A DNA stretch of 64,000 bases from Patescibacteria group bacterium (GTDB taxonomy: Bacteria > Patescibacteriota > Microgenomatia > UBA8517), in NCBI GenBank assembly GCA_038062915.1, contig JBBTWD010000016.1, forward strand, positions 27,522 to 91,521, read 5' to 3'. The notes under the pieces were generated by a model. The model was not told the origin of the DNA. It saw only the letters and a program-made list of their open reading frames with translations, and ran no database searches. This document shows, piece by piece, positions 4,362-45,591 of the stretch (position 1 is its first letter; the number at the start of each line of letters is the position of its first letter). The translations under genes and the position numbers were made by a program.

Positions 4362-4391
4362 GCTTACGTATAAACGCTATTACAAATTAAA

Positions 4392-4931
4392 TTAAATTGC
4401 AAGTAGCAGTGAGCCCATTATGACGAGTATTCCAAGTCCTGCTCCAAATACTGTTGGCCAGCTGGTTCCAGAGTTTGGAAGAGATGGCTGTGTTGGTGTT
4501 TGGGCCGAGGCACCAGCACATGTACAGTCAGTTTCTGCTACACACGAGGCGTTTCGGCAGAATCCCTGGTAGCAAATAAGATCACTCCCGCAGTTACTAT
4601 TGCTCCCACATGTTCCTCCGCAGGAATTTGGAGTACCGGGAGGTGAAGTTGGGGATTCAGTTGGCGTTGATGTTGCGGTACTGGTTGCCGTAGAAGTGGC
4701 GGTCGATGTTGCGGTTGCCGTGGCTGTAGCTGTAGCTGTTGATGTCGCACCAATCGTAAATGACAATGAGCAATTATTTGTTTCTGCAGCCCTTGGTTTA
4801 CTAGATGGTACATTTGGAGCCACCGGCTGTGCTCTCAATTGGTAAAGCCTGATAGCGGTAAAAATAGCAACTCCAGCTAGAACTAGAGTTATGATTATTA
4901 TTATTCCGGTTACAAATTTAGATTTTTTCAT
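4392..4931 (-). CDS. membrane-anchored protein with Thr/Ser/Ala-rich repeat linker and Cys-rich knot-like domain; C-terminal LPNSG + hydrophobic tail
   Basis: 179 aa. N-terminal TM, TATATATATSTATSTATSTATSTPTESPTSPP linker, CGGTCGSNSNCGSDLICYQGFCRNASC, and a C-terminus of SLPNSGTSW + 20 hydrophobic residues. Confidence 0.45.
   Translation of the reverse strand: MKKSKFVTGIIIIITLVLAGVAIFTAIRLYQLRAQPVAPNVPSSKPRAAETNNCSLSFTIGATSTATATATATATSTATSTATSTATSTPTESPTSPPGTPNSCGGTCGSNSNCGSDLICYQGFCRNASCVAETDCTCAGASAQTPTQPSLPNSGTSWPTVFGAGLGILVIMGSLLLAI
4660..4760 (-). repeat. short in-frame tandem codon repeats (GCxACx units) encoding the (T-A/S-T-A) linker
   Basis: Plus-strand gcggtNgccgtNgNtgtagctgt periodicity is visible directly. 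Confidence 0.7.
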
Positions 4932-4932
4932 A

Positions 4933-5796
4933 TTATTTCCATTGATTTAATATTTTAACTTGTGCTGAAATGTTAAATGTTGTTGTTCCTGCCGGAATTG
5001 TATAAAGATCACAAAATTCATTCTTGCCCCCGCCCGGCCTTTTACCTATCGTTTCCGGCCTTGTGGTTCCATTAACAGTGAACCTTGCGGCTGTAAATTG
5101 AACTCGATCTTGTGCTGGGGTAGTAGTTCCAGTTGCACAGAAATTAACTTGGTTATTAGCTTTGAGGCTAGAAAGCTGAGCTACACTTAGTTGCGTCCAT
5201 GTTGGAGAATAGGCTTTAATATTTTGACAACTAGCGGTGGGAGTGCCATCACCATCATTTACAACACATCTACCACACTTGTCACCAGAAAGAGGTATCC
5301 ATTTACATTTATCTGCCTTTTCTATAGTACATTCCCGTTCGGCAGTTGCGCAGTCTGTTGCCCCAGATTCAGAACAAGTTTCTTCGTATGCTTTTTCTGA
5401 AACACTTTGTTTTTGTTGGGTCAAGATTACTCCTCCGGCGATGCCGCCAATTAATAAAAATAATCCCAATATTGTTGCGATGATTTTTCCTCCGCCGAAT
5501 TTTTTCTTTGGTGGTGGGGAAACCATCATTGAGGACACGTCGTCTAGTGGTGCAGCTGTTCCACCACTTTCACTGGCGATTGGAGACTGGAGATTGGAGA
5601 CTGGCTGCGAGTCTTCAGTTGGCATAGATGAAATATCTGAAGTATCTGCCATTTGAAAGTCAGGGACAGTTATAACTGGATTATCGTCAACTGGGGGAAC
5701 TACCGGAGTTTGAACCGGATCTGTTTGAGTTGGGTCCAACTTCGCTGAAGCTCCGCTGGATAAATCAGATTGATTGGGCATGTTTATAGGTAACAA
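4933..5796 (-). CDS. bitopic protein: Pro/Ser-rich disordered N-terminal region, single TM, Cys-rich extracytoplasmic domain
   Basis: 287 aa. KKKFGGGKIIATILGLFLLIGGIAGGVIL TM at about residue 110. 14 Cys in the C-terminal half. Internal 12-bp tandem repeat (gattggagactg x2) at 5561-5590. Confidence 0.4.
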   Translation of the reverse strand: MLPINMPNQSDLSSGASAKLDPTQTDPVQTPVVPPVDDNPVITVPDFQMADTSDISSMPTEDSQPVSNLQSPIASESGGTAAPLDDVSSMMVSPPPKKKFGGGKIIATILGLFLLIGGIAGGVILTQQKQSVSEKAYEETCSESGATDCATAERECTIEKADKCKWIPLSGDKCGRCVVNDGDGTPTASCQNIKAYSPTWTQLSVAQLSSLKANNQVNFCATGTTTPAQDRVQFTAARFTVNGTTRPETIGKRPGGGKNEFCDLYTIPAGTTTFNISAQVKILNQWK

Positions 5797-7075
5797 AAGA
5801 CAGCGCCATAACGCCTATACCCAGAATAGAGAAAAGAATGGTCGGAGTCAAGTTACCAGTTTGAGGAATAGGCGCTGGGCTTGCAGTTACTTTTGGACTA
5901 GACGTTGGTTTAGCATTTGACGAGGCGGTGGGAGTTGGGGTTGCAGTTGTGGTCTCTCCAGAACCAGATGCCTCAAAGGCCGGAGCTTCACCCGCTTGAA
6001 CAACAAAATTTCTAGTTAGTTTTCTGGTTATTCCGGTTATATCTTTCCAGGAAATAGTAATTTTATGAACTCCAGGACTTAAATTTTCCGGTGGATTCCA
6101 ATTCCAAGATCCGGCAGTGCCAATAGTGACGGATGCTGTTATGGGATTTTCAGACTCGACAGTTATTGTTAATATAGTTCCTTTTGGCCCGTCACCAAAA
6201 AATTCTGGTTCGGTGCTAGTTACCACCTCTCCATCATCTAAACTCTCAAGGGTTACACTTTGAGCTGGTCCAGAAACGGGGACATTGTCGGCTACGGCGA
6301 ACTTGGATTTTTCTTCTGAATTTTCAGGAAGATCGACTTCGGCATTAGGTGTTCCTCCAGATGTTGATATTGGAAGGCTTCGAAAATCATGTGTTTGCCC
6401 AAGTACCATGGGTGGGGCGGGTTTAGCAGATTGTGGAAAAATTTGAGCGGTTGAAACATCCCCAGTTCCTGTCTCCACAAAAATTTCAACTAAGGTTTGC
6501 GCCTCGTTGATTTCTAGCAAGTTTTTTAAATCTTGAGTTCTTGTAGCCCCTAACTGAAAAACATAATTGCCGGTAGGAGAGGTTAATGTTGAGAGTATAT
6601 ATCCTTGAATATTTGCATAAACTAAGGCATTTTTGATTGTTTCCCCAGTTGAACTTATTACCGATCCTGATATAAGCACAGAATTTTCGCTAACATTTAA
6701 AGCAGATCCTGTTTTTGTTTTCCAGGGAATCCCATTGTTGTCAAACAGTATTCCTCCTGAATTTATTTTATAGGAGTATTCAGTTTCAGCCTTAAGATCG
6801 TTTAGTGCCACACTGTGAGTGAAAGACTTTTTGCTATCTTGAACCAATTTGTTTTGACCCCAAAGCACAAACCCGACAGACTCCTTGTCTGTAACCCAAG
6901 AGATTGTCAGACTAGTATCTGAAATATTAGAAACCCGTATATTTTTAGGCATTGCCTCTCCGGATGCTCCTAATCTAAAAATAGCTCTCGAATTAACTAA
7001 TATAACTCCAAAAAGTGTTCCAACAATTAAAACTATTAGTCCGAGTATTGTTGGAAGTTTATTTTTTTTAATCAT
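5765..7075 (-). CDS. surface protein with N-terminal signal-anchor, fibronectin type III-like domain, Ig-like/beta-sandwich region, Thr/Pro/Ser-rich stalk and C-terminal IPQTG sorting-signal-like motif
   Basis: The ORF track starts at a TTG at 7093, but the ATG at 7075-7073 (MIKKNKLPTILGLIVLIVG) is the likely start. IRVSNISDTSLTISWVT...YSYKI resembles FN3. The C-terminus is PIPQTGN-LTPTILFSILGIGVMALSFV-TYKHAQSI (motif + TM + basic tail). Confidence 0.5.
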   Translation of the reverse strand: MIKKNKLPTILGLIVLIVGTLFGVILVNSRAIFRLGASGEAMPKNIRVSNISDTSLTISWVTDKESVGFVLWGQNKLVQDSKKSFTHSVALNDLKAETEYSYKINSGGILFDNNGIPWKTKTGSALNVSENSVLISGSVISSTGETIKNALVYANIQGYILSTLTSPTGNYVFQLGATRTQDLKNLLEINEAQTLVEIFVETGTGDVSTAQIFPQSAKPAPPMVLGQTHDFRSLPISTSGGTPNAEVDLPENSEEKSKFAVADNVPVSGPAQSVTLESLDDGEVVTSTEPEFFGDGPKGTILTITVESENPITASVTIGTAGSWNWNPPENLSPGVHKITISWKDITGITRKLTRNFVVQAGEAPAFEASGSGETTTATPTPTASSNAKPTSSPKVTASPAPIPQTGNLTPTILFSILGIGVMALSFVTYKHAQSI

Positions 7076-7140
7076 AAGCGTAGCTTGTGACAAACTTTGT
7101 TTATCATAAGCGTAGCTTGTGACAAACTTTGTTTATCATG
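7071..7140. repeat. perfect 32-bp tandem direct repeat x2 plus 6-bp partial third copy
   Basis: atcataagcgtagcttgtgacaaactttgttt occurs at 7071-7102 and 7103-7134, then atcatg. The first copy overlaps the ATG (read on minus strand) of the FN3 gene. Confidence 0.9.
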
Positions 7141-7145
7141 AAATG

Positions 7146-7340
7146 TTACTCATTTCTATTTTGAATATCTCTAATAATATCTTGATCTAGGAATGGCACC
7201 AATGGTTTTGAGATTTCATCAGGTACCACCAAAGATGGTTTTACGACAACTGCTCGGTAAACGCTTAAAGATATCCACATAATTGCAGTTAGGGTTGTCA
7301 AAATTAAAATTGTAACAATGTTAGGAATTTTGTTTTTCAC
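7146..7340 (-). CDS. small single-TM protein (pilus-assembly associated?)
   Basis: 64 aa. N-terminal TM. Positioned between the pilO-like gene and the FN3 gene in the same operon. Confidence 0.3.
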   Translation of the reverse strand: MKNKIPNIVTILILTTLTAIMWISLSVYRAVVVKPSLVVPDEISKPLVPFLDQDIIRDIQNRNE

Positions 7341-7990: not shown

Positions 7991-7991
7991 A

Positions 7992-8546: not shown

Positions 8547-8795
8547 CTATTTTGATTTTGTTTTTGGAAGAAGCTTTGACAAAGCGCTTTTAATCCTGGC
8601 GGATTTATTTTTGTGGATAACTTTCTTTTTTGTGGCCCTGTCAGCCAATGAAGTTGCTTTGAATATCGAGTCTAGACTCTTAAGTTTTCTAGCTTTTCTT
8701 AAGGCCACTTCAAGCTTTGAAATGATAATTTTATTAACACTAGTTTTTTTATGGGAGCTTCTCAAGGCTCTTTTGGCTGTTTTAGTAACCGGCAT
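8547..8795 (-). CDS. rpsT: 30S ribosomal protein S20
   Basis: MPVTKTAKRALRSSHKKTSVNK... internal Met of the 95-aa ORF is the conserved bS20 start. Confidence 0.75.
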   Translation of the reverse strand: MPVTKTAKRALRSSHKKTSVNKIIISKLEVALRKARKLKSLDSIFKATSLADRATKKKVIHKNKSARIKSALSKLLPKTKSK

Positions 8796-8814
8796 CCCAA
8801 TAGTATAATCGACC

Positions 8815-10476
8815 TTGATAATGAAATCAATCAAAAACCTATTTAATTCACAACAAAAGACTGTTCTTTCCGCCGCGACAATTATTATGTTTATGGTTGT
8901 TGCCAGTCGAATCCTGGGTCTTGTTCGTCAAAGAGTTTTGGCAAGTTTTTTTACGCCAGATGAACTTTCACTTTTCTTTGCCGCGTTTCGCTTACCCGAT
9001 TTGGTTTTTGAGGTATTAGTTTTTGGGACCTTTTCAGCCGCATTTATCCCAGTTTTTACAGGACTTATCAAAAAAAACAAAAATGAGGCTTGGAAGGTGG
9101 CTACAACAGTTGTCAATATTGGATTTTTAGTTTTTTTAATTTTGGCAGGATTTTTAATCTTTTTTTCATCTCATCTTTATGGTGTTTTAGCTCCTGGATT
9201 CACAAATGGACAACAAGTAACAATAGTAAGGCTTACTAGAATTCTGTTTGCGGCCCAAGGCTTTTTTGTTATTAGTTACGTTTTAACTGCAGTTTTAGAA
9301 TCATCACGGCGTTTTTTAATTCCTGCGGTCGCTCCACTTTTTTATAACCTAGGAATCATTTTTGGTACACTAATTTTTGCTCCCAAGTTTCATCTTATGG
9401 CCCCAGTCATCGGGGTTATAGTGGGCTCTGCTCTGCATCTTTTAATTCAACTCCCCCTTTCTTTAAAACTTGGTTTCAGATTTAGGTCAAAAATTTCCAT
9501 TGATGATAATGTAAGAAAAATTGGAAGACTTGCACTCCCCAGAATTATTGAAGTTTCAGTGATTCAGGTTATGAAAACGGTCGAGCTTTTTTTGGCTTCA
9601 TTAATTTCAACTGCTTCATATACTTATTTTACTCTAGGCAACACCATTCAACTTATTCCAGTTGGACTTTTTGGGACATCGATAGCCAAAGCATCTCTAC
9701 CCACACTATCAAGACAGGTGGGCCAGCCAGGCGTTTTCAGGAAAACACTTTTTGATGCTCTATATCAGATGGTTTTTTTAATTTTGCCAGTTTCGGCCAC
9801 ATTGATAGTTTTAAGAATCCCCATAGTAAGGCTTATTTTTGGGACAGATATGTTTGATTGGGAAGCAACGGTCCAAACCGGAATGGTTGTTTCGGCATTC
9901 GCCGTTGGAGTTATCTTCCAAGCTGGTGCAAGTCTACTTTCAAGGGCATTTTATGCCATGCACGATACAAAGACTCCCGTTATTATTTCTATAATCTCAT
10001 TAATTATTAATATTAGCTTGGCATTTATTTTTGTCAAAGTTTTTAGTCTTCCCTCTTGGTCTCTGGCACTTGCCTACTCTATCGGAGTTTTTATACAAGG
10101 CGCCACTCTTTTTATAGTAATCAATAATCGTCTTAAAAATGGTCCGATTTGGAAACTTCTTTCCCCACTTTTTAAATCAGTATTTTCATCCGTAGTTTCA
10201 GGTGTCGTGATGTATTTTATGCTCAAGTTTTTTGATAGATGGGTTTGGATAAAAAATTCGCCGGCCAATCTTCCTTTTGAGAGGTTTGTTTTGGATACAA
10301 GATATGCCGGAAACCTTTTGGCATTAACCATGTTGGTAATTTTATCGGGCGCCTTGGCTTACTTTTTAACTTCTTATTTACTAAAATCTCAAGAATTAAC
10401 TAATTTTTTAAACTTGTTTAAACGATTTTTTATTTCAAGAAAAATAGAACCCATTTCAGACCTTGACAAGGGTTAG
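8815..10476 (+). CDS. murJ: lipid II flippase MurJ (MviN)
   Basis: 553 aa with 14 TM segments. ILGLVRQRVLASFFT N-terminal motif. Confidence 0.8.
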   Translation: MIMKSIKNLFNSQQKTVLSAATIIMFMVVASRILGLVRQRVLASFFTPDELSLFFAAFRLPDLVFEVLVFGTFSAAFIPVFTGLIKKNKNEAWKVATTVVNIGFLVFLILAGFLIFFSSHLYGVLAPGFTNGQQVTIVRLTRILFAAQGFFVISYVLTAVLESSRRFLIPAVAPLFYNLGIIFGTLIFAPKFHLMAPVIGVIVGSALHLLIQLPLSLKLGFRFRSKISIDDNVRKIGRLALPRIIEVSVIQVMKTVELFLASLISTASYTYFTLGNTIQLIPVGLFGTSIAKASLPTLSRQVGQPGVFRKTLFDALYQMVFLILPVSATLIVLRIPIVRLIFGTDMFDWEATVQTGMVVSAFAVGVIFQAGASLLSRAFYAMHDTKTPVIISIISLIINISLAFIFVKVFSLPSWSLALAYSIGVFIQGATLFIVINNRLKNGPIWKLLSPLFKSVFSSVVSGVVMYFMLKFFDRWVWIKNSPANLPFERFVLDTRYAGNLLALTMLVILSGALAYFLTSYLLKSQELTNFLNLFKRFFISRKIEPISDLDKG

Positions 10477-16455: not shown

Positions 16456-17790
16456 ATGAAAAAAAGAAATCCAATAGTTGTAGTTTTGGGGCATGTAGAT
16501 CACGGTAAGACTACGCTTCTTGATGCAATTCGAAAAACTAGTGTGGCTTCACGAGAGGCAGGAGGAATTACGCAAAGTATCGGGGCTTCTGTTGTAAACG
16601 GAATTTGTTTTATTGACACACCGGGGCACGCCGCCTTTGGTAAAATGAGGGGGCGTGGGACAAGGGTTGCAGATATAGCCATCTTGGTTGTTTCAGCAGA
16701 TGATGGGATTAAACCACAAACAAAAGAAGCGCTTGAGATGATTAAGGAAGCTAAAATTCCATTTATTGTTGCTCTAACAAAGATTGATATAGTAGGAGTT
16801 CGTCTAGAGATAGTTCGTGGCCAGCTTGAAAAAGAAGGGCTACTCTTTGAAGGTAGAGAAGGAGAGGTTCCACTCGTTTCACTTTCTGCCAAAACAGGAG
16901 AAGGGTTAAAAAACCTTCTTGAAACAATCACACTTCTTTCTGAAGTTAATAATGTTTCAGGCGACCTCAATGCTCCACTTGAAGCGGTTATCATCGAGTC
17001 GTTTAAAGATGCAAGAGGCCCGGTTACCAATATCATAGTCAGAAACGGGAATATTAAAGTTGGGGATCAAATTGATATAGATAACTTATCAGGAAAAGTA
17101 AGGGGAATCTTTAATGATAAAGGAGAATCTGTCCGAGAAGTCCTACCCGGTGAACCATCTCAAGTTATTGGTTTAACCCAAAAACAAGATGTTGGTCCAA
17201 GAAAAGTTTTGGGTGATGCTAGACGGTTGGCAGAAGATGAACTGCCAATTGTATTAAAAGCAGCAAATTCAGGGATACTTGAGGCAATTATTGCCTCACT
17301 ACCCCCTAAAGTTATAGTTGTCGACTATGGAATTGGAGACGTTTTAGGTAATGATATTCTAACTGCAAAAGTAGGTAATGCCTATGTTTTTGCCTTTGGA
17401 ACAAAAATTCCAAATAACATTGCAAAATTAGCAGAAACAGAAGGAGTAAGGGTTAAAAAATTTGATATCATTTATGAGTTAATTTCAGAAATTGAAGAAA
17501 CCTTAAAAGGTGGAAAAGTTCAAATATTAGGTAAGGCTCAAGTTTTAGCAAGTTTTCCTTTTAATAAAAAAAGCGTTGCTGGGTGTAGAGTTTTAACCGG
17601 TAGATTTAATAAGGGTGATCGCTTAATTTTAACCAGAGACGAAAAAGAAATTGGAAAAGCAAAAGCCCTGACAATTAAAAAACAGAAAGTAGACACAACT
17701 TCGGTTGGGGCTAATGAGGAATTTGGAGTAATCTTAGAACCCCAACTTGATTTCCAAGTTAATGATGTGTTACTATCGGTCACAAAATGA
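16456..17790 (+). CDS. infB: translation initiation factor IF-2 (minimal, 444 aa, no N-terminal extension)
   Basis: [17 protein letters not shown] and TKID G-domain motifs. Begins directly at the G domain. Confidence 0.85.
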   Translation: MKKRNPIVVVLGHVDHGKTTLLDAIRKTSVASREAGGITQSIGASVVNGICFIDTPGHAAFGKMRGRGTRVADIAILVVSADDGIKPQTKEALEMIKEAKIPFIVALTKIDIVGVRLEIVRGQLEKEGLLFEGREGEVPLVSLSAKTGEGLKNLLETITLLSEVNNVSGDLNAPLEAVIIESFKDARGPVTNIIVRNGNIKVGDQIDIDNLSGKVRGIFNDKGESVREVLPGEPSQVIGLTQKQDVGPRKVLGDARRLAEDELPIVLKAANSGILEAIIASLPPKVIVVDYGIGDVLGNDILTAKVGNAYVFAFGTKIPNNIAKLAETEGVRVKKFDIIYELISEIEETLKGGKVQILGKAQVLASFPFNKKSVAGCRVLTGRFNKGDRLILTRDEKEIGKAKALTIKKQKVDTTSVGANEEFGVILEPQLDFQVNDVLLSVTK

Positions 17791-26877: not shown

Positions 26878-28983
26878 TTGCCTATGGCTAAGAATCATCA
26901 CAGAAGAAGACTTGATAAAAGAGGGTTTAAGTTAAAACTTAAAAGAGATACTGTCTTTTCTATTGTTCAGATTTTTTTCTTTGCCCTCGCCGGACTAGTT
27001 TTAATTTCCTTTTCCAGAACGGGCGCAATTTTGATGCGCTTCAACGATCTTTTAATCGCTTATTTCTCCTGGTCGGCAATTTTTTTACCTTTTGTTTTTC
27101 TTTCATTTGCATTTTTAATATCGAAAATAAAACTTATTATTGGTCAACCTAATGTAATAGTCGGATCACTTCTTTTTTTTCTTTCAATAATGGCAATTGG
27201 GCGCGCAGGTATATTGGGTCACGGAGCGTGGGAAGCTATTAGTATATTGATTACTGGGGTCGGAGCAGGAATTGTTTTAGCAGGAACTGCCCTAATTGGT
27301 TTAATTGTGCTTTTTAATACTTCAATTGATCAGGTGTTTAGGGTTGTCGCCAATATCATTTTAACCATCCGAGGCTATACTTTTGGAAACACCGATATTA
27401 AAATTGGAGGATCTCTTTCAAAAGGTCCTTTAAAAGTTTCCGGTGGTGGAATGGCCAAATCCCAAGTTGCCAATATGCCAAAAGAACCATTGGAACAAAA
27501 ACTTGTTAGTAATATACCTGGAGAAGAAAAAGTTTGGCACTACCCATCAATTGATTTGTTGGGCGAGGAAGAGGTGGGTAAGGCGGACCGAGGGGATATT
27601 AAGGGGAATGCCGCAATTATTGAAAAAACCCTTGAATCGTTTGGAATTACTGCCCACGTTGTTGAGGTTAATCTGGGTCCCGCCGTTACTCAATATGCTA
27701 TTGAGCTTGCTCATGGCACCAAGCTTTCTAAGATTACATCTTTGGAGCGTGATTTAGCACTAGCCCTTTCGGCTCCAACTGGGACAATTAGAATTGAAGC
27801 CCCGATTCCTGGAAGAAATTTGGTGGGAATAGAACTCCCCAATAGGAATGCAGAATTTGTACCGCTTAGAAAAATGATTGAAAGTGAAGCTATGTCTGGC
27901 AACCGCTCAAGATTAGCAGTTGCTTTGGGATTAGATGTTTCTGGTAGGGCAATTGTTGCCGATGTTTCTAAGATGCCACATATATTAATTGCTGGTCAAA
28001 CCGGATCTGGAAAGTCGATTTGTATCAACGCCTTTTTAGCATCGATTCTTTTTAGAGCTAGTCCATCTGAAGTTAAAATGATAATGGTCGACCCTAAACG
28101 AGTCGAGCTTACCCATTACAATGGCATTCCACATCTTCTTTCCCCTGTTATAGTAGAACCGAAAGAAGTTATCTCGGCTCTTCGTTGGATTTTAGCCGAA
28201 ATGGATAGGCGTTATAAACTTTTTGCTGAAGCGGGGGCCAGAAACATCGATAGTTACAATGAGATGTCAGGATTTCAAGCTCTTCCCTACATTTTATTAT
28301 TCATAGATGAACTCGCTGATATTATGCTTTTTTCTCCTGTTGAGGTTGAAGATGCGATTACCAGAATTGCTCAAATGAGTAGGGCTACTGGGATTCATAT
28401 GGTTCTAGCTACCCAAAGGCCATCAGTTGACGTTATAACTGGTCTTATCAAAGCCAATATTCCCTCTAGAATCGCTTTTGCAGTTGCGTCTCAAGTTGAT
28501 TCCCGGGTAATTCTCGATACTCAAGGAGCTGAAAAACTACTTGGAAAAGGGGATATGCTTTACCTTCCCCCGGAACAGGCAAAGCCAATGAGAATTCAAG
28601 GAGCTTTTGTTAATGACAAAGAAATTAACGCACTCGTATCTTTTATTAAAAATCAAGGTGTAACACCACAATATACACAGGAGGTTATAACCATGCAAAA
28701 GGCTGGGACGATTACGGTTTCAGGGATAAGTGGGGAGATTGATGATTTTTTCAAAGATGCCATTCGAGTCGTTTGCCAATATGAGAGAGCTAGCGCGTCA
28801 CTTCTCCAGAGAAGGCTGTCGATCGGATATGCAAGAGCTGCAAGAATTATGGATCAACTTGAAGATGGTGGTGTAATCGCGGCAAGCGATGGCACCAGTA
28901 AACCTCGAGAAGTTTTAGTGAAAAACGCAGAAGAGTTTATAGCAAATTTAGAAGGAAATGAAAACAATCGGCCAAATACTTAA
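26878..28983 (+). CDS. ftsK: DNA translocase FtsK/SpoIIIE
   Basis: N-terminal TM region. Motor domain GQTGSGKS with the gamma domain at the C-terminus. Confidence 0.9.
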   Translation: MPMAKNHHRRRLDKRGFKLKLKRDTVFSIVQIFFFALAGLVLISFSRTGAILMRFNDLLIAYFSWSAIFLPFVFLSFAFLISKIKLIIGQPNVIVGSLLFFLSIMAIGRAGILGHGAWEAISILITGVGAGIVLAGTALIGLIVLFNTSIDQVFRVVANIILTIRGYTFGNTDIKIGGSLSKGPLKVSGGGMAKSQVANMPKEPLEQKLVSNIPGEEKVWHYPSIDLLGEEEVGKADRGDIKGNAAIIEKTLESFGITAHVVEVNLGPAVTQYAIELAHGTKLSKITSLERDLALALSAPTGTIRIEAPIPGRNLVGIELPNRNAEFVPLRKMIESEAMSGNRSRLAVALGLDVSGRAIVADVSKMPHILIAGQTGSGKSICINAFLASILFRASPSEVKMIMVDPKRVELTHYNGIPHLLSPVIVEPKEVISALRWILAEMDRRYKLFAEAGARNIDSYNEMSGFQALPYILLFIDELADIMLFSPVEVEDAITRIAQMSRATGIHMVLATQRPSVDVITGLIKANIPSRIAFAVASQVDSRVILDTQGAEKLLGKGDMLYLPPEQAKPMRIQGAFVNDKEINALVSFIKNQGVTPQYTQEVITMQKAGTITVSGISGEIDDFFKDAIRVVCQYERASASLLQRRLSIGYARAARIMDQLEDGGVIAASDGTSKPREVLVKNAEEFIANLEGNENNRPNT

Positions 28984-29587
28984 AGATGGAAGGCAACGGA
29001 AAAAATACTCCCTTAAAAAACTTGAAGATCTCACGAAGATTAAAAGCGATTTTATAAGCGCAGTTGAAAACGAAGATTGGGGAGTTCTTCCGCCCTTTCC
29101 AACTGTTTTAGGATTTGTTAAAAGTGTCTCGGCGGCGTTGGGCATAGATGAAAAAATCGCAGTTGCCATACTCAAAAGAGATTATCCACCAAAAATAGAA
29201 GCGGTAAATCCAAAACCCGATGTTTCATCAAAATTTGTCTGGAGTCCAAAAATTACATTTGTCGTAGGGGTGGGAGTAGTCACAGCAGCAATATTGGGGT
29301 ATTTAGTCTTTCAATATTCCAGGTTTATTTCACCCCCCAAATTAGATATAGATTCGCCAGTAAATGGGCAAATTATTACAGGTCGTCTTGTGGTAGTTTC
29401 AGGAAAGACAGATTCAGATGCAAAAATTACAGCAAACAATCAAGCCGTACTGGTTAATTCTGATGGAAAGTTTGACACTAATCTTGAGGTTGATCTTGAG
29501 ACGAGGGAGGTTGTTATAAAGTCAATTTCTAGATCTGGTAAAGAAACGGTTATACATCGAACAATAAATGTTCGAGTAAATAACTAA
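28958..29587 (+). CDS. RodZ-like protein: XRE-type HTH, single TM, extracytoplasmic C-terminal domain
   Basis: N-terminal HTH (SLKKLEDLTKIKSDFISAVENEDWGVLP), TM at about residue 95, then a beta-rich C-terminal domain. Confidence 0.45.
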   Translation: MKTIGQILKDGRQRKKYSLKKLEDLTKIKSDFISAVENEDWGVLPPFPTVLGFVKSVSAALGIDEKIAVAILKRDYPPKIEAVNPKPDVSSKFVWSPKITFVVGVGVVTAAILGYLVFQYSRFISPPKLDIDSPVNGQIITGRLVVVSGKTDSDAKITANNQAVLVNSDGKFDTNLEVDLETREVVIKSISRSGKETVIHRTINVRVNN

Positions 29588-29663
29588 TTGCTCTAAGTGC
29601 TCTAATTGTTCTAATATTGCTTAGGTCAATTAGGTTAATTAGAAATTAGAAATTTTTATAAAC

Positions 29664-29897
29664 ATGGATCCAGTTCAAAGACTTTTAGTTATAGTGGTAG
29701 TTTCTTTAACACTCCTTTTGGTAATTGTTGGAGTGCAGGTTATGTTAATTATTATTGATTTGAGGCGGGCCATAAAAAGATTGAACAGTATTTTAGAAGA
29801 CGCGATTCTTGGAGGAGGTTTAATTCGTCCCGAGAAACTTACTTCTGTTCTTGAGATCCTTCGCAAAAACAAAACTCTTGAGTCCCACGGCGGCTAG
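29664..29897 (+). CDS. small membrane protein, unknown function
   Basis: 77 aa. One strongly hydrophobic helix. Preceded by an unusual ctaa/ttag repeat-rich spacer. Confidence 0.25.
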   Translation: MDPVQRLLVIVVVSLTLLLVIVGVQVMLIIIDLRRAIKRLNSILEDAILGGGLIRPEKLTSVLEILRKNKTLESHGG

Positions 29898-29918: not shown

Positions 29919-31685
29919 ATGGTTACGACAAATGAAGTTCGAGAAAAATATTTAAAATTTTTTGAAAAAAGGGGTCACAAAGTTATTCCCGCCTCCCCAC
30001 TTGTTTTAGAAAATGATCCTACGACCCTTTTTACTTCAAGCGGTATGCAACAAATGATTCCATATCTTAAAGGTGAAAAACATCCGTTGGGTAAAAGGTT
30101 GGTTGACTCGCAGCCCTCAATTAGAATGCAGGATCTTGATGAGGTGGCAGACAACAGACATTATTCTTTTTTCGAGATGCTTGGCAATTGGTCTCTGGGT
30201 GACTATTTTAAGAAAGAACAACTTGACTGGATTTGGGAATTTTACACAAAAGAATTGGGACTGGATAAAAAGAGATTATATGTTTCAATATTTGCTGGGA
30301 ACAATGATGTTCCAAAAGACACAGAAAGTTACGAGATTTGGAAAAGTCTGGGGGTAGAAGAGGGCCATATCCACTTCTATGGTGCCAAAAAGAACTGGTG
30401 GAGTATAAGTGGGCTCCCAGACAAAATGCCAGCAGGTGAAATCGGCGGACCAGATAGTGAAATTTTTTTTGAATTCGATTCAGTCGAACACAATACAAAA
30501 TTTGGTCAAGAATGTCACCCCAACTGTGACTGTGGAAAATTTCTTGAGATAGGCAATTCAGTTTTTATACAGTTCAAAAAAGAAGCGGATGGAACCTTGT
30601 CTGAACTGCCACAAAAAAATGTCGATTTTGGGGGAGGTTTAGAAAGAATCACGGCCGCGGTCAATAACGATCCTGATACATTTCATATTGATTCGTTTTC
30701 AGAAATAATCAAAAAAATAGAAGAAGAGGTTGGTATAAAATATAATTCAGATTCCAAAAAAGACAAAAATTTTAGAATAATCGCGGACCATATTCGTGCT
30801 TCGACGAGTTTATTAAAAGAGGGGATTCTACCGGCCAATAAATTACATGGTTATGCATTACGAAGACTGATTCGTCGCGCAATGTTTCATTTACACTTAC
30901 TTGGAGGGGGAGTTTCTGGAACAACTTTGGCCCATATTGCAGGAGACCCAGAAGGTGCAAAAGAAGGATTTATAGAAGAAGGTAAAAGATTTGCTGATGC
31001 CTTAAAGCGCGGACTTAAAAAATTAATCAATATTGTTTCAAATGATACCAAAGTTGATGGAAAAGTAGCCTTTGATTTATACCAAACAGGTGGCTTTCCA
31101 CTTGAACTTACACTTGAAATTCTTTCCCAGAATGAAATGACTTTTAATGAAGGCGCAAAAGAAGAATTTAAAAAAGAGTTTGAAAAACACAAAAATTTAA
31201 GTAGAACAACTTCAGCTGGAATATTTAAAGGTGGGTTGTCTGATAAATCTGATAAAACGGTTACAAAACTTCATACGGCAACACACCTACTTCATGCTGC
31301 ACTTCGAGAAATTATAGGTAGTCATGTCTCACAGAAAGGAAGCCATATAACTGCCGAAAGATTACGCTTTGATTTTTCTCATCAAAATAAACTTAGCGAT
31401 GAGGAAAAAACCGAAGTTGAAAATTTAATAAATAAAAAAATTAAAGAAAACTTACCAGTTTCTTTTAAAGAAACAAGTCTTGATGATGCGATTGTCCAAG
31501 GTGCATTACATTTTTTTGCTGAAAAATACGGAAAAGATGTTAAGGTCTACTCAATCGGTGATTTTTCAAAAGAAGTTTGTGGTGGCCCGCATGTGGGGAA
31601 CACCAGTGAGGTTGGTCGTGTTAAGATTATCAAACAGGAGAAAATTGGCGCGGGAGTTATTAGAATCTACGCTAGCTTACAATGA
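29919..31685 (+). CDS. alaS: alanyl-tRNA synthetase, short form lacking C-Ala domain
   Basis: Catalytic-core motifs (FFEMLGNWSLGDYFK) and editing-domain motifs (HTATHLLHAAL, CGGPHV). 588 aa. Confidence 0.85.
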   Translation: MVTTNEVREKYLKFFEKRGHKVIPASPLVLENDPTTLFTSSGMQQMIPYLKGEKHPLGKRLVDSQPSIRMQDLDEVADNRHYSFFEMLGNWSLGDYFKKEQLDWIWEFYTKELGLDKKRLYVSIFAGNNDVPKDTESYEIWKSLGVEEGHIHFYGAKKNWWSISGLPDKMPAGEIGGPDSEIFFEFDSVEHNTKFGQECHPNCDCGKFLEIGNSVFIQFKKEADGTLSELPQKNVDFGGGLERITAAVNNDPDTFHIDSFSEIIKKIEEEVGIKYNSDSKKDKNFRIIADHIRASTSLLKEGILPANKLHGYALRRLIRRAMFHLHLLGGGVSGTTLAHIAGDPEGAKEGFIEEGKRFADALKRGLKKLINIVSNDTKVDGKVAFDLYQTGGFPLELTLEILSQNEMTFNEGAKEEFKKEFEKHKNLSRTTSAGIFKGGLSDKSDKTVTKLHTATHLLHAALREIIGSHVSQKGSHITAERLRFDFSHQNKLSDEEKTEVENLINKKIKENLPVSFKETSLDDAIVQGALHFFAEKYGKDVKVYSIGDFSKEVCGGPHVGNTSEVGRVKIIKQEKIGAGVIRIYASLQ

Positions 31686-33691
31686 AAATGAATTTGAAAG
31701 ACTTTTTTGCCCAAAAAGAAAAACCGCCGGAAACGTATTGGTCATTGGTTCTTGAACCTGGTTGGGTACAGGCTGGTATTTGGCACATAACGGACAGTGT
31801 GGCTCAGGTGATAACAAGTAGTCCCGCAACGCCCTGGGAAGCTAACGATGAACTTATAGGGGCAATCGATACTGCACTTTCTTCCGCTGTTCAAAAACTT
31901 CCAGAAGGAGCTTCTGAACCCACAAAAACTGTTTTTGGGGTAAGTAGCAATTGGATAAAAGATGGAGAAATCGGTAGTGAATATCTAGAAAAAATTAAAA
32001 AGGTTTGTGAAGATCTTTCCTTAACCCCAACCGGCTTTGTAGTACTCCCCGAGGCAATCGCCCATTATTACAAATCTATTGAGGGGGTACCTATCAACTC
32101 TATAATTTTAGGTCTTGGTAAGAATTTTTTGGAGGTTTCTGTTTTTTCGTTGGGAAATTTAGTTGGAACATCAAGTGTTGCAAGGAGCGTTTCTTTAGCT
32201 GACGACGTGGTCGAGGGTTTATCAAGGTTTGAGGGGGCAAGCCCTCTTCCTTCTAGGATAATTATATTTAATGGTCGGGGTGGCGAACTTGAAGAAGCAA
32301 GAGATACCCTTTCCGGGGTTGCCTGGGATCAAAATACAAAAATCCAATTTTTACACACACCTAAGGTTGAAATTTTAGAATCCGACAAAAAAGTCCTTGC
32401 CACATCACTAGCTGGAGCGGCTGAAATTGGTCAGGCTTCAGCGATATCTAATGTTTCTGAAGTTTCAGCCACTACCTCACTTGCGAATCTTGGATTTTCT
32501 GTCGGGAAAGATGTTTCAGAGGAGGTTTTGCCACCCCCACCATCTCCTGTAGTCCAAAAGCCTGAACTTTACCTAACAAAACTAAAAAGTTTCTTTACTG
32601 GCAAAAAATTCACACCCCTTATAGTTATTTTTGGGGTTTTTATATTTGGTTTAATATTTTTTTGGTGGTTTTATCCTAAAGCCACAGTATCGATCTATGT
32701 TTCTCCTCAAAAGTTTGAGGAAGAGTTTGATATTTCATTTGATGTCAACGAAATTAATAAAGTAAGCGTTTCAGGAGAAAAAACTAAATCCGCAACCGGA
32801 ACGAAATTAATTGGAGAAAAAGCTAAAGGTGTCGTGAGTTTGAGAAATGGCACAGATTCTCCTATAAACTTTCCAGCTAGCACGGTTTTGGTGTCTTCGG
32901 GGGACTTAAGATTTAGTTTAAACGAAACCGCTTCGGTTTCTGCCGCAATTGACGCTGATAATCCGGGAACTGCCGGGGCCAATGTGACTGCTCTCGACCT
33001 TGGGTCGGCTTACAATTTAGCTAAAGATGAAGTTTTTAAGGTTGGCAATTATCCTAAGGCGGATGCTTATGCAAAATCTACTTTGGATTTTTCAGGCGGG
33101 TCAAGTAGGGAGATTTCAGCTGTAAACATAGAAGATCGAGAAAAACTCTTAAACGAATTAACAAACGAACTTTCCGATAAAGCTAGGGGGGAATTTTTGG
33201 TAAAAACTAATAATGATCAAGTTTTTGTTAATTCGTTTGCTGTTTTTGAAATAGATAAACAATCTTTTAGTCACAAGATTGGGGATGAGGCGGATACTCT
33301 AAAACTAGATCTATCCATGATCGCTACTGGAGTTATTACAAATAAGCAACGTTTGGCTGACTTTGTTAGGGAAAAATTAAAAGACAAAATTCCCCAGGGA
33401 TTTGTTTTAAGAGATACACAAGTGGATTATAAATTTGAATTTATAGATGCTGATGGGGAAAAATATAATTATAAAATGACTACAACCGTTAATTTTTTAC
33501 CAGAGATCAAAACAGAGGAAATAATCAAAAAGATCACTGGTAAGTTGCCTCAACTGGTTGAAGAGTATCTTTCATCAACTCCCGGTTTTTCTCGAGCCGA
33601 AATTCGCGTCACCCCTCTCCTTTTTGGTAAATTTGCAACTTTACCAAGGGTAGCTAAAAACATTACCATAGAGGTCGTAGCGGAAAAATGA
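31682..33691 (+). CDS. membrane protein: N-terminal actin-fold ATPase-like (PilM/FtsA-like) cytoplasmic domain, one TM, large extracytoplasmic domain
   Basis: 669 aa. LVLEPGWVQAGIW, LPEAIAHYY and IILGLGKNFLEVSVF are consistent with an ASKHA/PilM-FtsA fold. TM at about residue 315. Confidence 0.4.
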   Translation: MKMNLKDFFAQKEKPPETYWSLVLEPGWVQAGIWHITDSVAQVITSSPATPWEANDELIGAIDTALSSAVQKLPEGASEPTKTVFGVSSNWIKDGEIGSEYLEKIKKVCEDLSLTPTGFVVLPEAIAHYYKSIEGVPINSIILGLGKNFLEVSVFSLGNLVGTSSVARSVSLADDVVEGLSRFEGASPLPSRIIIFNGRGGELEEARDTLSGVAWDQNTKIQFLHTPKVEILESDKKVLATSLAGAAEIGQASAISNVSEVSATTSLANLGFSVGKDVSEEVLPPPPSPVVQKPELYLTKLKSFFTGKKFTPLIVIFGVFIFGLIFFWWFYPKATVSIYVSPQKFEEEFDISFDVNEINKVSVSGEKTKSATGTKLIGEKAKGVVSLRNGTDSPINFPASTVLVSSGDLRFSLNETASVSAAIDADNPGTAGANVTALDLGSAYNLAKDEVFKVGNYPKADAYAKSTLDFSGGSSREISAVNIEDREKLLNELTNELSDKARGEFLVKTNNDQVFVNSFAVFEIDKQSFSHKIGDEADTLKLDLSMIATGVITNKQRLADFVREKLKDKIPQGFVLRDTQVDYKFEFIDADGEKYNYKMTTTVNFLPEIKTEEIIKKITGKLPQLVEEYLSSTPGFSRAEIRVTPLLFGKFATLPRVAKNITIEVVAEK

Positions 33692-34380
33692 CTCAAAAAA
33701 TAATTCTTCGAATAGCAGCAGCAGTATCAGGGATATCTGGAACAATCATCCTAATTGGAGTGTTTTATCCAATTGTTTCATATAATAATACCTATTCTCA
33801 AAAATATCCAAATTTAATTTCACCCATCTCCGAAAAAAAACCAGTTAATATTGAAGAAGTAGATTATACCCAGGCAAGCAATTGGTTTACAGGAGGAGCA
33901 AAAAAAGAAGATTTTATTTCGAGTAAGGTTGAATATTACACGATTTCTATTCCAAAATTGAAGATCGAAAATGCAACAGTTGCCATAGGGGGGAATGATT
34001 TAAGTCAACACATTATTCAATATCCCGGGACAGCCCTACCCGGGAAGCGTGGTAACTCTGTCCTTTTTGGTCATTCGATCTTGCCCATTTTTTATAACCC
34101 TAAAGATTATCTATCGATTTTTTCTCTTTTACCGAGTTTAAAAATAGGAAACGAAATTTTTATTGAATATGACGGTGTTTCATATAAATACAGAGTTGAG
34201 AATATGTTCGAAGTTTTGCCTACCGATATTCAAGTTTTGGAGCAGGATGATTCTGATTCATTTTTATCTCTTGTAACCTGTGTTCCTCCGGGTGACCCCA
34301 GGAAACCAAAAAGGCTAATAGTCAGGGCAAGGGTGGTTCCACCAGAAGAACTTACATACAATGAAAATTCTAGCAATTGA
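33688..34380 (+). CDS. sortase family transpeptidase
   Basis: N-terminal TM anchor. His in VLFGHS, Cys in SLVTCVPPG (TLxTC-type) and a downstream conserved Arg (RLIVRARV). Confidence 0.6.
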   Translation: MTQKIILRIAAAVSGISGTIILIGVFYPIVSYNNTYSQKYPNLISPISEKKPVNIEEVDYTQASNWFTGGAKKEDFISSKVEYYTISIPKLKIENATVAIGGNDLSQHIIQYPGTALPGKRGNSVLFGHSILPIFYNPKDYLSIFSLLPSLKIGNEIFIEYDGVSYKYRVENMFEVLPTDIQVLEQDDSDSFLSLVTCVPPGDPRKPKRLIVRARVVPPEELTYNENSSN

Positions 34381-34708
34381 TTACGGTAGAAGTAAGATTG
34401 GGCTGGCCACAGCAGAGGGCCCCTTGGCAGGGCCCTGGAAGGTCGTTGGTTTAAACGAATTGAATGAAATTTTAAAAAAAGAAAAATTTGATAAATTGGT
34501 TGTTGGAGTTTCATCGGGAACTATGGCAGAGGAACAAAAAAAGTTTGCCAAAAATATCGGCGCTGAAACTTTTGATGAAACCTTAACTACTAAAGAGGCC
34601 CAAAGACTTTCGTTGGAAGCTGGAATGGGAAGGAAAAAAAGAAGAGATATGGAAGATGCATTTGCAGCAGCCCTTATGCTACAATCTTATTTGGACTCAA
34701 ATGTTTAA
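34361..34708 (+). CDS. ruvX: Holliday junction resolvase-like protein RuvX/YqgF
   Basis: MKILAIDYGRSKIGLATAEG with DE..T motifs. Typical alaS-proximal position. Confidence 0.75.
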   Translation: MKILAIDYGRSKIGLATAEGPLAGPWKVVGLNELNEILKKEKFDKLVVGVSSGTMAEEQKKFAKNIGAETFDETLTTKEAQRLSLEAGMGRKKRRDMEDAFAAALMLQSYLDSNV

Positions 34709-34895
34709 AAATGTCATAGCGCCGATTCAGGCATGGTTGCTCTCGCAAGGGAAATGCGTTGGTTGTGGGGCACTTCTTTCTGAAGGGAAAAGCAAGTCTA
34801 CTAAGTTTGGTGAACAAATAACTTGTAAAAAGTGTGGAAGAATTTTTATTAAAGAAAGCGGTAAGTATAGACGTGCACTTCTCGAAGAAGTGTAG
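34701..34895 (+). CDS. small zinc-ribbon protein (CxxC...CxxC)
   Basis: MFKNV...CVGCGALL...CKKCGRIF. Overlaps the ruvX stop by 8 bp. Confidence 0.4.
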   Translation: MFKNVIAPIQAWLLSQGKCVGCGALLSEGKSKSTKFGEQITCKKCGRIFIKESGKYRRALLEEV

Positions 34896-35326: not shown

Positions 35327-36250
35327 ATGAAACGACTATTACTTTTACCCATTGCTTTAGTTTTAATTGCTGTCACATTGGTCTTTTGGTTTAGGTCAAA
35401 TACAAAATCAGTTTCTTCTGACAAGAATTTTAAAGATTTCTTGATCGTAAAAGGATCGGGAGCAAGCCAAATTGGCAACAAGCTCTATGATGAAGATTTA
35501 ATTAAAAATCCATTGGTTTTCAAAATTTATATCCAGATATCGGGACAGGCTGGTAAAATTCAGGCAGGTGAGTACAGGCTCTCACCCAGCCTTTCTCTGT
35601 TTGAAGTAGTTACCCAACTACTCCGAGGACCGGCAGAAATTTGGATAACAATTCCGGAAGGACTTAGGCGTGAAGAAGTTGCAGAAAGATTTTCTAAGGC
35701 TTTGGGTAAAGATGAAGTTTTTACTAAAGAATTTTTAAGCTCATCTTCTGATGAAGAAGGATATCTTTTCCCAGATACATATCTTTTCCCTAAAACCGCT
35801 AGTGCTTCAGCAATTGTTAACAAAATGACAAACACTTTTGATAGCAGGACCTCAAAAATGAATCTAACGCGAGACCGGGTGATATTAGCCTCGTTAGTTG
35901 AAAGGGAAACAAAAACTAGTCAGGAGCGCCCAATTGTGGCTGGAATTTTACTCAATCGAATTGAGATTGGAATGGCTCTTCAGGTCGACGCTACTTTGCA
36001 ATATGTCAATGGCACATGGGGTTTAATTAATTCATCTGATAAAAAAACAAATTCGCCATATAACACATACAAATTTCCAGGGCTTCCTCCTGGTCCCATA
36101 GCAAGCCCCGGGTTAAGCTCTCTTGAGGCTGTGGTTAATCCAAGCGATTCTGATTACCTATATTATCTTCATAATTCAAAAGGACAAATTTATTATGCAA
36201 AAACACTGGCAGAACACAATGAAAATATAAGAAGGTACTTGACAGATTGA
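35327..36250 (+). CDS. mltG: endolytic murein transglycosylase MltG (YceG-like)
   Basis: N-terminal TM. YNTYKFPGLPPGPIASPG signature. Confidence 0.75.
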   Translation: MKRLLLLPIALVLIAVTLVFWFRSNTKSVSSDKNFKDFLIVKGSGASQIGNKLYDEDLIKNPLVFKIYIQISGQAGKIQAGEYRLSPSLSLFEVVTQLLRGPAEIWITIPEGLRREEVAERFSKALGKDEVFTKEFLSSSSDEEGYLFPDTYLFPKTASASAIVNKMTNTFDSRTSKMNLTRDRVILASLVERETKTSQERPIVAGILLNRIEIGMALQVDATLQYVNGTWGLINSSDKKTNSPYNTYKFPGLPPGPIASPGLSSLEAVVNPSDSDYLYYLHNSKGQIYYAKTLAEHNENIRRYLTD

Positions 36251-44468: not shown

Positions 44469-44912
44469 CTACTGCTCCAGGTTTAAAATAGTTATTTCTT
44501 GTACAAACTCTTTTGGTGAAACTATTTTTATACCTCTAAAGTTTTTAATTAGTAAAACATGTTTTTTATCACCACTAACAATGTAATCGGCTTTGGCCTC
44601 AAAAGCACAAGAAAAGAGTTTGTCATCATCTGAATCGAGCGAAGTTTTGACATTAATTTCTTCAGGAACAATTATTGAAGTTTTCAAAAGTTCAGCAGAA
44701 ACATTTTGAATTTCGGTTTGACTTAGCTTTATAAATTTTTGAACCTTTGGATAATTAAAAGCTCTTTCTAAATCTCTTAAAATAGAAAATGAAGTCGCAA
44801 ATAAAATCTTATCTTGCCTCCAAAGTTTTAGAATCAGAGAGGGTGGGGTATTTGAGAAAGCAAGACCGCTTAAGATTACATTAACATCAGGAACAACTAT
44901 GACTGGAATCAT
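44469..44912 (-). CDS. PIN-domain toxin (VapC-like/TA-system PIN family)
   Basis: VVPDVNVILSGL N-terminus and DSDDDKLFSCAFEAKADYIVSGDKKHVL acidic-pocket motifs. Confidence 0.65.
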   Translation of the reverse strand: MIPVIVVPDVNVILSGLAFSNTPPSLILKLWRQDKILFATSFSILRDLERAFNYPKVQKFIKLSQTEIQNVSAELLKTSIIVPEEINVKTSLDSDDDKLFSCAFEAKADYIVSGDKKHVLLIKNFRGIKIVSPKEFVQEITILNLEQ

Positions 44913-45157
44913 ATCTGATTTGTTGCTTCGTCAATCGCAGCTTGAACTTCTGACTGTTTGTATTTTGAAGTATTTTTGCGAATCTTTTCAATTGTTTTAA
45001 AAAGTCTATCTTTTGATTCCTGTCTGTATTTTCGAAATTGTTCAAATTGAATCATAGAAACTAGCACCGCCTTTGGCTTTCCTGCACGTTCGATTATAAA
45101 AGCCATTTGTTTCAAATCAACTTGGTCAAGATAGGTTCCAGGCTGTTTTCTAAAATT
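44909..45157 (-). CDS. Phd/YefM-type antitoxin
   Basis: MNFRKQPGTYLDQVDLKQMAFIIERAGKPKAVLVSMIQFEQF. Stop overlaps the PIN start (ATGA-type coupling). The start may instead be at 45202. Confidence 0.5.
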   Translation of the reverse strand, partial: NFRKQPGTYLDQVDLKQMAFIIERAGKPKAVLVSMIQFEQFRKYRQESKDRLFKTIEKIRKNTSKYKQSEVQAAIDEATNQI

Positions 45158-45591
45158 CATGGCACTAATTGAAGCTGTACCTGAAAGCGAATTGTTTATC
45201 ATAATTATATCAATTATAGTAATTACAACAGTCTTGTCAAGTATCACTTTACATCTTGACTTCCGCAGAGAGAGAGTAATATTTGGGTTGAAATGAACTG
45301 GAAAGAATTTCTCACAACTCCATTTACTGTGGAAAAAGAAGCTACTGGAGTTTATCTTGGTCACGCTATCGACGCTCAAAAGGACTTAGAAGTAATTGAA
45401 GCGGTTCAGTTAGGCGGACATGTACCACCTGGCTTAGATGCTATTAAAAGAAGAGCTGCCATAAACGCAAGAAGAGCCAATGATCAATTAAAACATGAAT
45501 CTCCGATGCCAGGGGTAAAAGACTAGGTTATCTCATTGATCCCCAAACCTATCTCTGTTAAAATCACTCTTGCTCCGGAAGGAGTTTTTGT

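Follow-up and report, generated by a model that had tools for sequence, protein, structure and literature searches.

We found that a membrane protein of 669 amino acids (aa), here named X, and the sortase encoded next to it form a conserved pair in Microgenomatia, and that X joins a cytoplasmic actin-fold (ASKHA) domain to an external domain homologous to the phage baseplate wedge protein J/gp47. Gene X is an open reading frame (ORF) in a 64,000-nucleotide (nt) stretch of contig JBBTWD010000016.1 (GCA_038062915.1), which is called the window throughout and comes from a patescibacterial genome of the Microgenomates/Woesebacteria type. X may serve the sortase as a membrane-spanning scaffold, a role that we propose tentatively and weigh below against other explanations.

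Conservation of the X-sortase pair

A link between X and the sortase had been suggested by the original prediction for this locus, and it held across genomes. For the adjacency count, we used every non-redundant locus whose sequence extended far enough downstream, and a sortase was counted when its start lay no more than 400 nt from X. The results showed that the sortase was the gene directly 3' of X in 81 of 83 loci, with a median gap of 32 nt, and that alaS was directly 5' of X in 77 of 82. At the two exceptional loci (L055 and L075), the sortase was still found downstream on the same strand, beyond one inserted gene. The insertion encodes a 1,440-aa cytoplasmic protein with no assigned role in L055 (8228-12550) and a short-chain dehydrogenase/reductase in L075 (8200-8892); both were considered as functional clues and dismissed as sporadic cargo.

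Within Woesebacteria such adjacency proves little, because synteny there covers one whole block that runs from ftsK to rpoB (ftsK, a RodZ-like gene, a gene for a 77-aa transmembrane protein, alaS, X, sortase, ruvX, a CxxC gene, mltG and rpoB). For contexts outside that clade, the contigs of the most divergent X relatives were inspected. The first neighbourhood, alaS-X-sortase-ruvX, was that of the window and of L001-L084, and the distant loci L087, L092 and L100 kept the same order. In the second, which was found in L085, L088-L090 and L099, a clade including Candidatus Roizmanbacteria, a VanW/PG_binding_4 gene on the minus strand is followed by SBP_bac_1, X, the sortase and a class A penicillin-binding protein gene (PBP1a). 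The third, in L086, consists of mltG on the minus strand, the X-sortase pair, and the transketolase gene tkt on the minus strand. Since the pair is kept in three different neighbourhoods, the conserved unit is X with its sortase and not the alaS/ruvX setting. The description of X as inserted between alaS and ruvX is thus correct for the window lineage and does not extend to the Roizmanbacteria-type loci, where the pair lies between the genes of the solute-binding protein and the class A penicillin-binding protein. Peptidoglycan genes were recurrent among the flanking genes, namely mltG, PBP1a, VanW/PG_binding_4, the RodZ-like gene and ftsK.

The SBP_bac_1 protein of the Roizmanbacteria-type loci has a long acidic/Pro-rich N-terminal extension; its gene ends 1-40 nt 5' of X and has no adjacent ABC permease genes. 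It was considered as a sortase substrate and rejected, since it lacks a C-terminal sorting signal.

The sortase of the window matched PF04203 with 78.5 bits (cut-off 26.6, E = 4.7e-22) and TIGR01076 with 46.8 bits, above the cut-off of 39.35. None of the NCBIfam models for sortase classes A-F was reached, the best being class C with 48 bits against 160 and classes D, E and F lying far below; the nearest solved relatives were weak PDB matches of class C/D type. H129, C198 (in LVTC, the TLxTC-type motif) and R209 were invariant in 84 distinct X-linked sortases, and their sequences suggest that these proteins are active enzymes. The same 84 proteins also share an invariant TCxPPG, W66, and G18 and P28 in or just after the transmembrane anchor, which may be a signature of this sortase clade. 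A sortase family has been described as "near ubiquitous in Microgenomates" (Meheust et al. 2019, PMC6744442).

Architecture of X and its cytoplasmic domain

We built an AlphaFold2 model of X from a 50-sequence alignment (mean predicted local distance difference test score, pLDDT, of 86) and found four parts: a cytoplasmic ASKHA domain, a disordered cytoplasmic linker, a single transmembrane helix and an external domain (Table 1). The topology given by the original prediction was reproduced in this model, with the membrane helix at residues 308-330 and an ectodomain of about 340 aa. Because the N-terminal side of the helix is Lys-rich, the N-domain is placed in the cytoplasm and the C-terminal part outside; inspection of model and topology revealed no signal peptide in X. 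The helix is closed by a conserved W-W-F-x-P-K-A. We also considered the juxtamembrane W-W-F-Y-P-K-A as a pilin-type YPK motif with an acceptor Lys, and rejected this because 12 of 50 diverse homologs have S, T, R or L instead of the Lys.

Analysis of the model with DSSP showed that residues 1-258 are composed of two consecutive beta-beta-beta-alpha-beta-alpha-beta-alpha lobes, which is the ASKHA core, and that within these 258 aa there are no 1B, 1C or 2B inserts. Through Foldseek searches of the PDB, PilM of P. aeruginosa (5eq6) was obtained as the top match of the N-domain (E = 3.5e-8), together with Ppx/GppA, FtsA, EutJ, a ROK repressor and BT_3980, all with probability 1.0 and E-values to 1e-6. 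Ppx, EutJ and BT_3980 scored about equal to PilM, and the best size-normalised matches were the minimal ASKHA proteins EutJ (3h1q) and BT_3980 (3hrg), with TMt of 0.50-0.51. The actin-like fold expected for the N-terminal part was therefore recovered.

Sequence comparisons gave a different picture from the fold. The Pfam and NCBIfam hidden Markov models (HMMs) for PilM, FtsA, MreB and T2SSL/GspL (EpsL), with which the original prediction was to be checked, had no match at E <= 0.1 in X and 50 homologs, and neither did those for Ppx and Hsp70 or SHS2_FTSA. We then compared the N-domain profile by hhalign with FtsA, HofM (the PilM homolog), GspL, EutJ and MreB of E. coli K-12 and with DnaK of the window, using shuffled controls, and no target rose above these controls (HofM P = 0.33, FtsA P = 0.54, GspL P = 0.29). 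A sequence search of the PDB with the family profile returned a single antibody, matched by chance. By its predicted fold the N-domain is an ASKHA domain, and membership in a particular family cannot be claimed. The name "PilM/FtsA-like" is consequently apt for the fold and inapt for the family, given the silent HMMs, hhalign scores at noise level and the absence of a 1C-type insert.

In hhalign, the highest-scoring local alignments with FtsA, MreB and DnaK all set residues 133-164 of X onto the phosphate-2 loop, which supports the register of the nucleotide-binding motifs. According to column conservation, the phosphate-1 motif DxG[T/S] reads E25-P-G27-W in X, and the adenosine GG motif reads D197-G198-K. 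The phosphate-2 motif DxGGGT reads G144-L145-G146-x-x-x-L150-E151, so that the GGGT loop is gone, and the Asp is replaced by Gly (Gly144) in 49 of 50 sequences. Because all three motifs are degenerate, ATP hydrolysis by the N-domain appears unlikely, and the earlier description "ATPase-like" was too strong in view of the lost Asp and loop.

The linker varies in length and contains the motif [E/P]E-L-G-F-x-x-G-x-D-V, whose G and F are present in 50 of 50 diverse homologs, down to about 25% identity, with variable flanks. The peptide is undocked in the AlphaFold model. Being invariant inside an otherwise variable disordered linker, this ELGF peptide is probably a docking motif. ASKHA proteins typically bind short peptides, such as the FtsZ tail for FtsA, the PilN N-terminus for PilM, and ParR for ParM.

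The external domain is related to baseplate J/gp47

The ectodomain was modelled alone with a pLDDT of 92.6 and a predicted TM-score (pTM) of 0.71. Foldseek aligned it over 330-370 columns to seven independent baseplate structures (probability 1.0, E = 2e-6 to 5e-4), which were those of phi812 (9euf_I), cyanophage A-1(L) (8kea_b), XM1 (7kh1_A5), the diffocin tailocin (8v3w_0), the Mu gp47 type (9ki1_H), phiCD508 and Pa193. In the viral structure library BFVD, 40 matches with E < 1e-3 were found, mostly "Baseplate J like" where they were named. The global TM-scores of the ectodomain matches were low (0.2-0.26), as expected for a chain that is elongated, hinged and multi-domain.

Profile searches pointed to the same family. 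PF04865 (Baseplate_J) matched all 50 homologs, weakly, with a best E-value of 2.5e-7; in X of the window it scored 17.4 bits, below the gathering cut-off of 21.1. A weak match of ectodomain residues to the baseplate wedge family phrog_6 was obtained in PHROGs (E = 0.0065). Many X relatives carry a precomputed PF04865 match, and in some sources they are already named "baseplate J/gp47 family protein". These results indicate that the X ectodomain is a homolog of the phage baseplate wedge protein J/gp47, a relationship missed by the original prediction. Proteins of the baseplate J/gp6 class are builders of oligomeric platforms in contractile-tail baseplates.

Family size and distribution

The family of X is large: clustering at 90% left more than 776 homologs of full length. 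When 1.84 billion cluster representatives were searched with a profile, 3,976 clusters (50% identity) reached E <= 1e-30, and E <= 1e-3 was reached by 12,289; the best 150 clusters were all full-length, with 670-820 aa. Among named sources, X was seen only in Microgenomatia (Woesebacteria, Blackburnbacteria, Roizmanbacteria and "Microgenomates group"). All 80 related GTDB loci that were retrieved carry Woesebacteria or Microgenomates titles, or else evidently mislabelled ones. Metagenome-assembled genomes titled "uncultured Gammaproteobacteria", "Alphaproteobacteria bacterium" or "Candidatus Marinimicrobia" contain the full Woesebacteria-type block (L005, L006, L018, L019, P0289 and many others); they are evidently mislabelled Patescibacteria.

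Full-text searches of the literature for sortases with baseplate proteins, Patescibacteria or actin-like proteins found no description of X or of its pairing with a sortase. The Pam pilus of the candidate phyla radiation (CPR; bioRxiv 10.64898/2026.03.03.709456) was considered and set aside as unrelated, as it has chaperone-usher-like parts and neither a sortase nor an ASKHA component.

Candidate sortase substrates and the pilN/pilO region

Scanning the window for C-terminal sorting signals, we found exactly two proteins with LPxTG-like signals, an FN3/Big_13 surface protein with an IPQTG signal and a Thr/Ala-rich, Cys-rich protein with an LPNSG signal (Table 1). Both are plausible candidate substrates of the sortase. 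They are encoded in a cluster of small membrane-anchored, Cys-rich proteins with Thr/Ala/Ser low complexity, which lies on the minus strand at 3957-7340, downstream of pilN/pilO. The GC content is 0.454 at 4001-6000, compared to about 0.38 elsewhere in the window.

The adjoining region (7337-8531 and 8547-8834, minus strand) contains pilN (PF05137) and a pilO-like gene, with rpsT in place of pilM upstream. The N-terminus of this PilN, MATKKKLINLLPQEE, keeps LINLLP, a sequence of the INLLP type, which is the kind that binds PilM, and no canonical PilM is encoded within the 64-kb window. About 23 kb separate X from pilN/pilO, which are encoded on the opposite strand. The functional tie between X and pilN/pilO offered by the original prediction found no support, as pil genes adjoin the X-sortase pair in none of about 90 loci.

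Proposed role of the X-sortase module and alternative explanations

We suggest that X has no enzymatic function and serves as a transmembrane scaffold for a housekeeping sortase, following a logic like that of GspL; we regard this as a real possibility that still falls somewhat short of probable. X would span the membrane once, and its wedge-like ectodomain would form a platform on the side of the sortase, which is itself membrane-anchored with its catalytic domain on the same side as the X ectodomain. Through physical contact, such a platform could position, stabilise or gate the sortase and its LPxTG-type substrates (for example the IPQTG and LPNSG proteins), so that enzyme and substrates would be held close to the wall-building machinery. 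On the inner side, the ASKHA domain and the ELGF peptide may bind a partner in the cytoplasm or bring about self-association. The proposal fits with the recurrent peptidoglycan neighbours, with the platform building of baseplate J/gp6 proteins and with the invariant linker peptide.

Several points weigh against this scaffold role. The low TM-scores mean that homology of the ectodomain rests on local 3Di and sequence similarity and on weak HMM matches. The ASKHA assignment has the predicted fold as its sole basis, because neither HMMs nor hhalign gave support at the sequence level, and the N-domain may still bind nucleotide. X and the sortase could also be adjacent because two independently acting envelope proteins are regulated together, and we know of no sortase system that needs such a partner.

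The strongest rival, which we consider unlikely though not negligible, is that X is a factor of envelope growth or division linking cytoplasm and peptidoglycan in the manner of FtsA or RodZ, and that the sortase is co-located through a wall-biogenesis regulon. This would agree with the flanking genes, which encode FtsK, a RodZ-like protein with HTH_25 and a membrane helix, and MltG in the window type, and a class A penicillin-binding protein and VanW/PG_binding_4 in the Roizmanbacteria type, and with the presence of FtsA among the fold matches of the N-domain. However, the sole neighbour kept in every context is the sortase and not any peptidoglycan gene, and the locus lies outside the dcw/ftsZ context. 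X also has neither an FtsA/SHS2 match nor a 1C subdomain, and a baseplate-J ectodomain is without precedent in proteins of the divisome or elongasome.

A more ambitious idea, which we hold to be decidedly unlikely, is that the gp47/J-like ectodomains assemble, in the manner of baseplate wedges, into a ring on the external membrane surface. This platform would seed or anchor a surface fibre or an organelle of attachment built by the sortase, and would be controlled from inside by the actin-fold domain and the ELGF peptide. If this were true, it would describe a CPR cell-surface machine descended from, or ancestral to, a component of the contractile-tail baseplate.

It is improbable that the adjacency merely reflects inherited gene order, with X having an unrelated role such as that of an adhesin or receptor. 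Synteny of the ten-gene ftsK-rpoB block across Woesebacteria is what such inheritance would leave, but X and the sortase stayed together when alaS, ruvX and mltG were lost from their flanks through two or more independent rearrangements, and the short gaps and the ATGA overlap in the window also speak against it.

Even less credit can be given to X as the PilM equivalent of a type IV pilus, that is, a GspL-like fusion serving the orphan pilN/pilO at 7337-8531. Its bitopic topology resembles that of GspL, PilM is its top Foldseek match, and the window has a PilN with the INLLP-type N-terminus and no pilM upstream. The match to PilM is nevertheless hardly better than those to Ppx, EutJ and BT_3980, the PilM_2 and T2SSL HMMs are unmatched in 50 homologs, hhalign scores with HofM and GspL do not rise above noise, the 1C-type insert of PilM, FtsA and GspL is missing, and pil genes never stand beside X. 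Moreover, the PilM family of the CPR has been listed separately as fam000148 (Meheust et al. 2019, PMC6744442). Finally, it is scarcely credible that X was left behind by a prophage or tailocin, or domesticated from its baseplate, to act for instance as a decoy, receptor blocker or defence component. Homology of the ectodomain to baseplate J/gp47 is what suggests this, but the surroundings contain no genes for a sheath, tube, hub or further wedge protein, PHROGs finds no further tail genes, PADLOC gives no match, the GC content of X equals that of its surroundings, and X sits in a housekeeping operon with full-length conservation across a bacterial class in thousands of clusters.

Microgenomatia are a large uncultivated class of the CPR, and their surface biology, including attachment, episymbiosis and wall anchoring, is mostly unexplored. 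Their near-universal sortase (PMC6744442) has in X an equally conserved and structurally unusual partner. If the two proteins cooperate as a scaffold and its enzyme, sortase function in Microgenomatia would depend on a new accessory scaffold, and X would be a clear case of a baseplate wedge fold in cellular use outside a tail or type VI secretion (T6SS) apparatus. Thousands of database entries now named "baseplate J/gp47 family protein" or "hypothetical protein" could receive a corrected annotation, and X with its sortase offers a concrete two-protein target for heterologous reconstitution.

Layout of the locus

The 669-aa ORF between alaS and the sortase gene, with ATGA at both junctions, is real as first described: alaS and X overlap at 31682-31685, and X and the sortase gene at 33688-33691. 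The sortase and ruvX genes overlap by 20 nt. One caveat concerns the start of X. A further in-frame ATG, at 31688, corresponds to the first residues of the homologs (MNLKDF...) and of P0001, an NCBI model of 667 aa from a metagenome-assembled genome labelled "Patescibacteria group bacterium", which X matches with 100% identity. Because this ATG agrees with the consensus start of the homologs, X may begin two codons later, 3 nt past the alaS stop and without overlap, and be 667 aa long.

A scan of the locus found no terminator-like sites on the plus strand between alaS and the CxxC gene, where the genes are tightly spaced and mostly overlap, and strong promoter-like sites were restricted to the 5' sides of mltG and rpoB. 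An Rfam scan of both strands of the locus gave no match. The coordinates of the features are listed in Table 1.

Table 1. Coordinates in the window of gene X, the predicted parts of its product, the sortase gene, context genes and genes of candidate sortase substrates
Feature	Position	Strand	Description
Gene X	31682..33691	+	ORF call; 669-aa bitopic membrane protein; alternative ATG at 31688 gives 667 aa
Minimal ASKHA (actin-like) domain, cytoplasmic	31682..32455	+	aa 1-258; DSSP, Foldseek, column conservation, local hhalign register
Disordered linker, cytoplasmic	32456..32602	+	aa 259-307, length varies; pLDDT <50 for 261-307, alignment gaps
Linker motif [E/P]E-L-G-F-x-x-G-x-D-V	32483..32515	+	aa 268-278; candidate docking peptide
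Single transmembrane helix	32603..32671	+	aa 308-330, hydrophobic core about 312-330; N-in/C-out; model helix and alignment
External domain, baseplate J/gp47-like	32672..33688	+	aa 331-669 (339 aa)
Sortase	33688..34380	+	230 aa; PF04203; N-terminal transmembrane anchor, external catalytic domain with H129, C198, R209
alaS	29919..31685	+	588 aa; Pfam tRNA-synt_2c and tRNA_SAD; same transcription unit in the window lineage; context, not part of the module
ruvX	34361..34708	+	PF03652; context gene, 3' of sortase
CxxC ORF	34656..34895	+	79 aa, two CxxC pairs
mltG/YceG	35327..36250		Pfam YceG/MltG
rpoB	start 36324		3' of mltG
FN3/Big_13 surface protein	5765..7093	-	442 aa; C-terminus ...PIPQTGN, transmembrane segment, KH; Pfam, signal scan
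Thr/Ala-rich, Cys-rich protein	4392..4931	-	179 aa; C-terminus ...LPNSG, transmembrane segment; signal scan

The CxxC ORF shares 53 nt with the 3' end of ruvX; almost all related loci retain it in this place, with mltG following, and it has no family assignment. Between ftsK and alaS (28958-29897, plus strand) are the genes of the RodZ-like protein, which has HTH_25, a transmembrane segment and a Glucodextran_B-like external domain, and of the conserved 77-aa transmembrane protein, both belonging to the syntenic block. Two translation factors of the window are shortened, namely alanyl-tRNA synthetase, which ends at tRNA_SAD, and IF-2 (444 aa, 16456-17790). At 44469-45379, on the opposite strand, a PIN-domain toxin and a Phd/YefM antitoxin are encoded between rpsG and fusA, within an otherwise conserved str operon.

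Comparison with known systems

The closest analogues of X in layout are GspL/EpsL of the type II secretion system and the PilM-PilN pair, which likewise have a cytoplasmic actin-like domain, one transmembrane helix and an external assembly domain in N-in/C-out orientation. They are non-catalytic scaffolds that couple the cytoplasm to extracytoplasmic assembly, as we propose for X, and degenerate motifs together with a bitopic layout are known from GspL/EpsL. In known structures PilM has an FtsA-like 1C subdomain inserted in its first lobe. X differs from GspL and PilM in lacking this 1C/domain-II insert and any T2SSL or PilM_2 match, with hhalign at noise level. The external domain of GspL and PilN is ferredoxin-like, whereas that of X is baseplate-J-like. 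The partners are different as well, being GspE and GspM or PilB, PilN and PilO in those systems and a sortase in X, which has no gsp genes nearby. FtsA has a C-terminal amphipathic helix and a dcw/ftsZ context, whereas X has a true transmembrane helix and alaS and the sortase as neighbours. The N-domain of X resembles EutJ (3h1q) and BT_3980 (3hrg) in being a two-lobe core of about 250 aa without large inserts; those two proteins are soluble, whereas X is membrane-tethered with degenerate phosphate motifs, and hhalign with E. coli EutJ showed no sequence similarity.

On the external side, the ectodomain aligns over its full length with baseplate wedge J/gp47 proteins (the T4 gp6 class, PF04865), and PF04865 matches all 50 homologs, X of the window scoring below the gathering cut-off. 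In contrast to those proteins, X is cellular, membrane-anchored, fused to an ASKHA domain and encoded in a housekeeping operon; its neighbours were housekeeping genes in all loci, with no contractile-tail, tailocin or T6SS-like cluster around it. The X-linked sortase is like the sortases of Gram-positive bacteria (housekeeping classes A and E, pilus class C) in being a membrane-anchored Cys transpeptidase with a His-Cys-Arg triad. Candidate LPxTG-like substrates are also encoded here as in those systems, and some X contexts adjoin peptidoglycan synthases. It fits none of the NCBIfam models of classes A-F, and to our knowledge and in the literature searched no sortase system with an obligate ASKHA/baseplate-J membrane partner has been described. 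These comparisons suggest that X is a variation on bitopic ASKHA scaffolds such as GspL, with the phage-baseplate ectodomain and the sortase partner as new elements.

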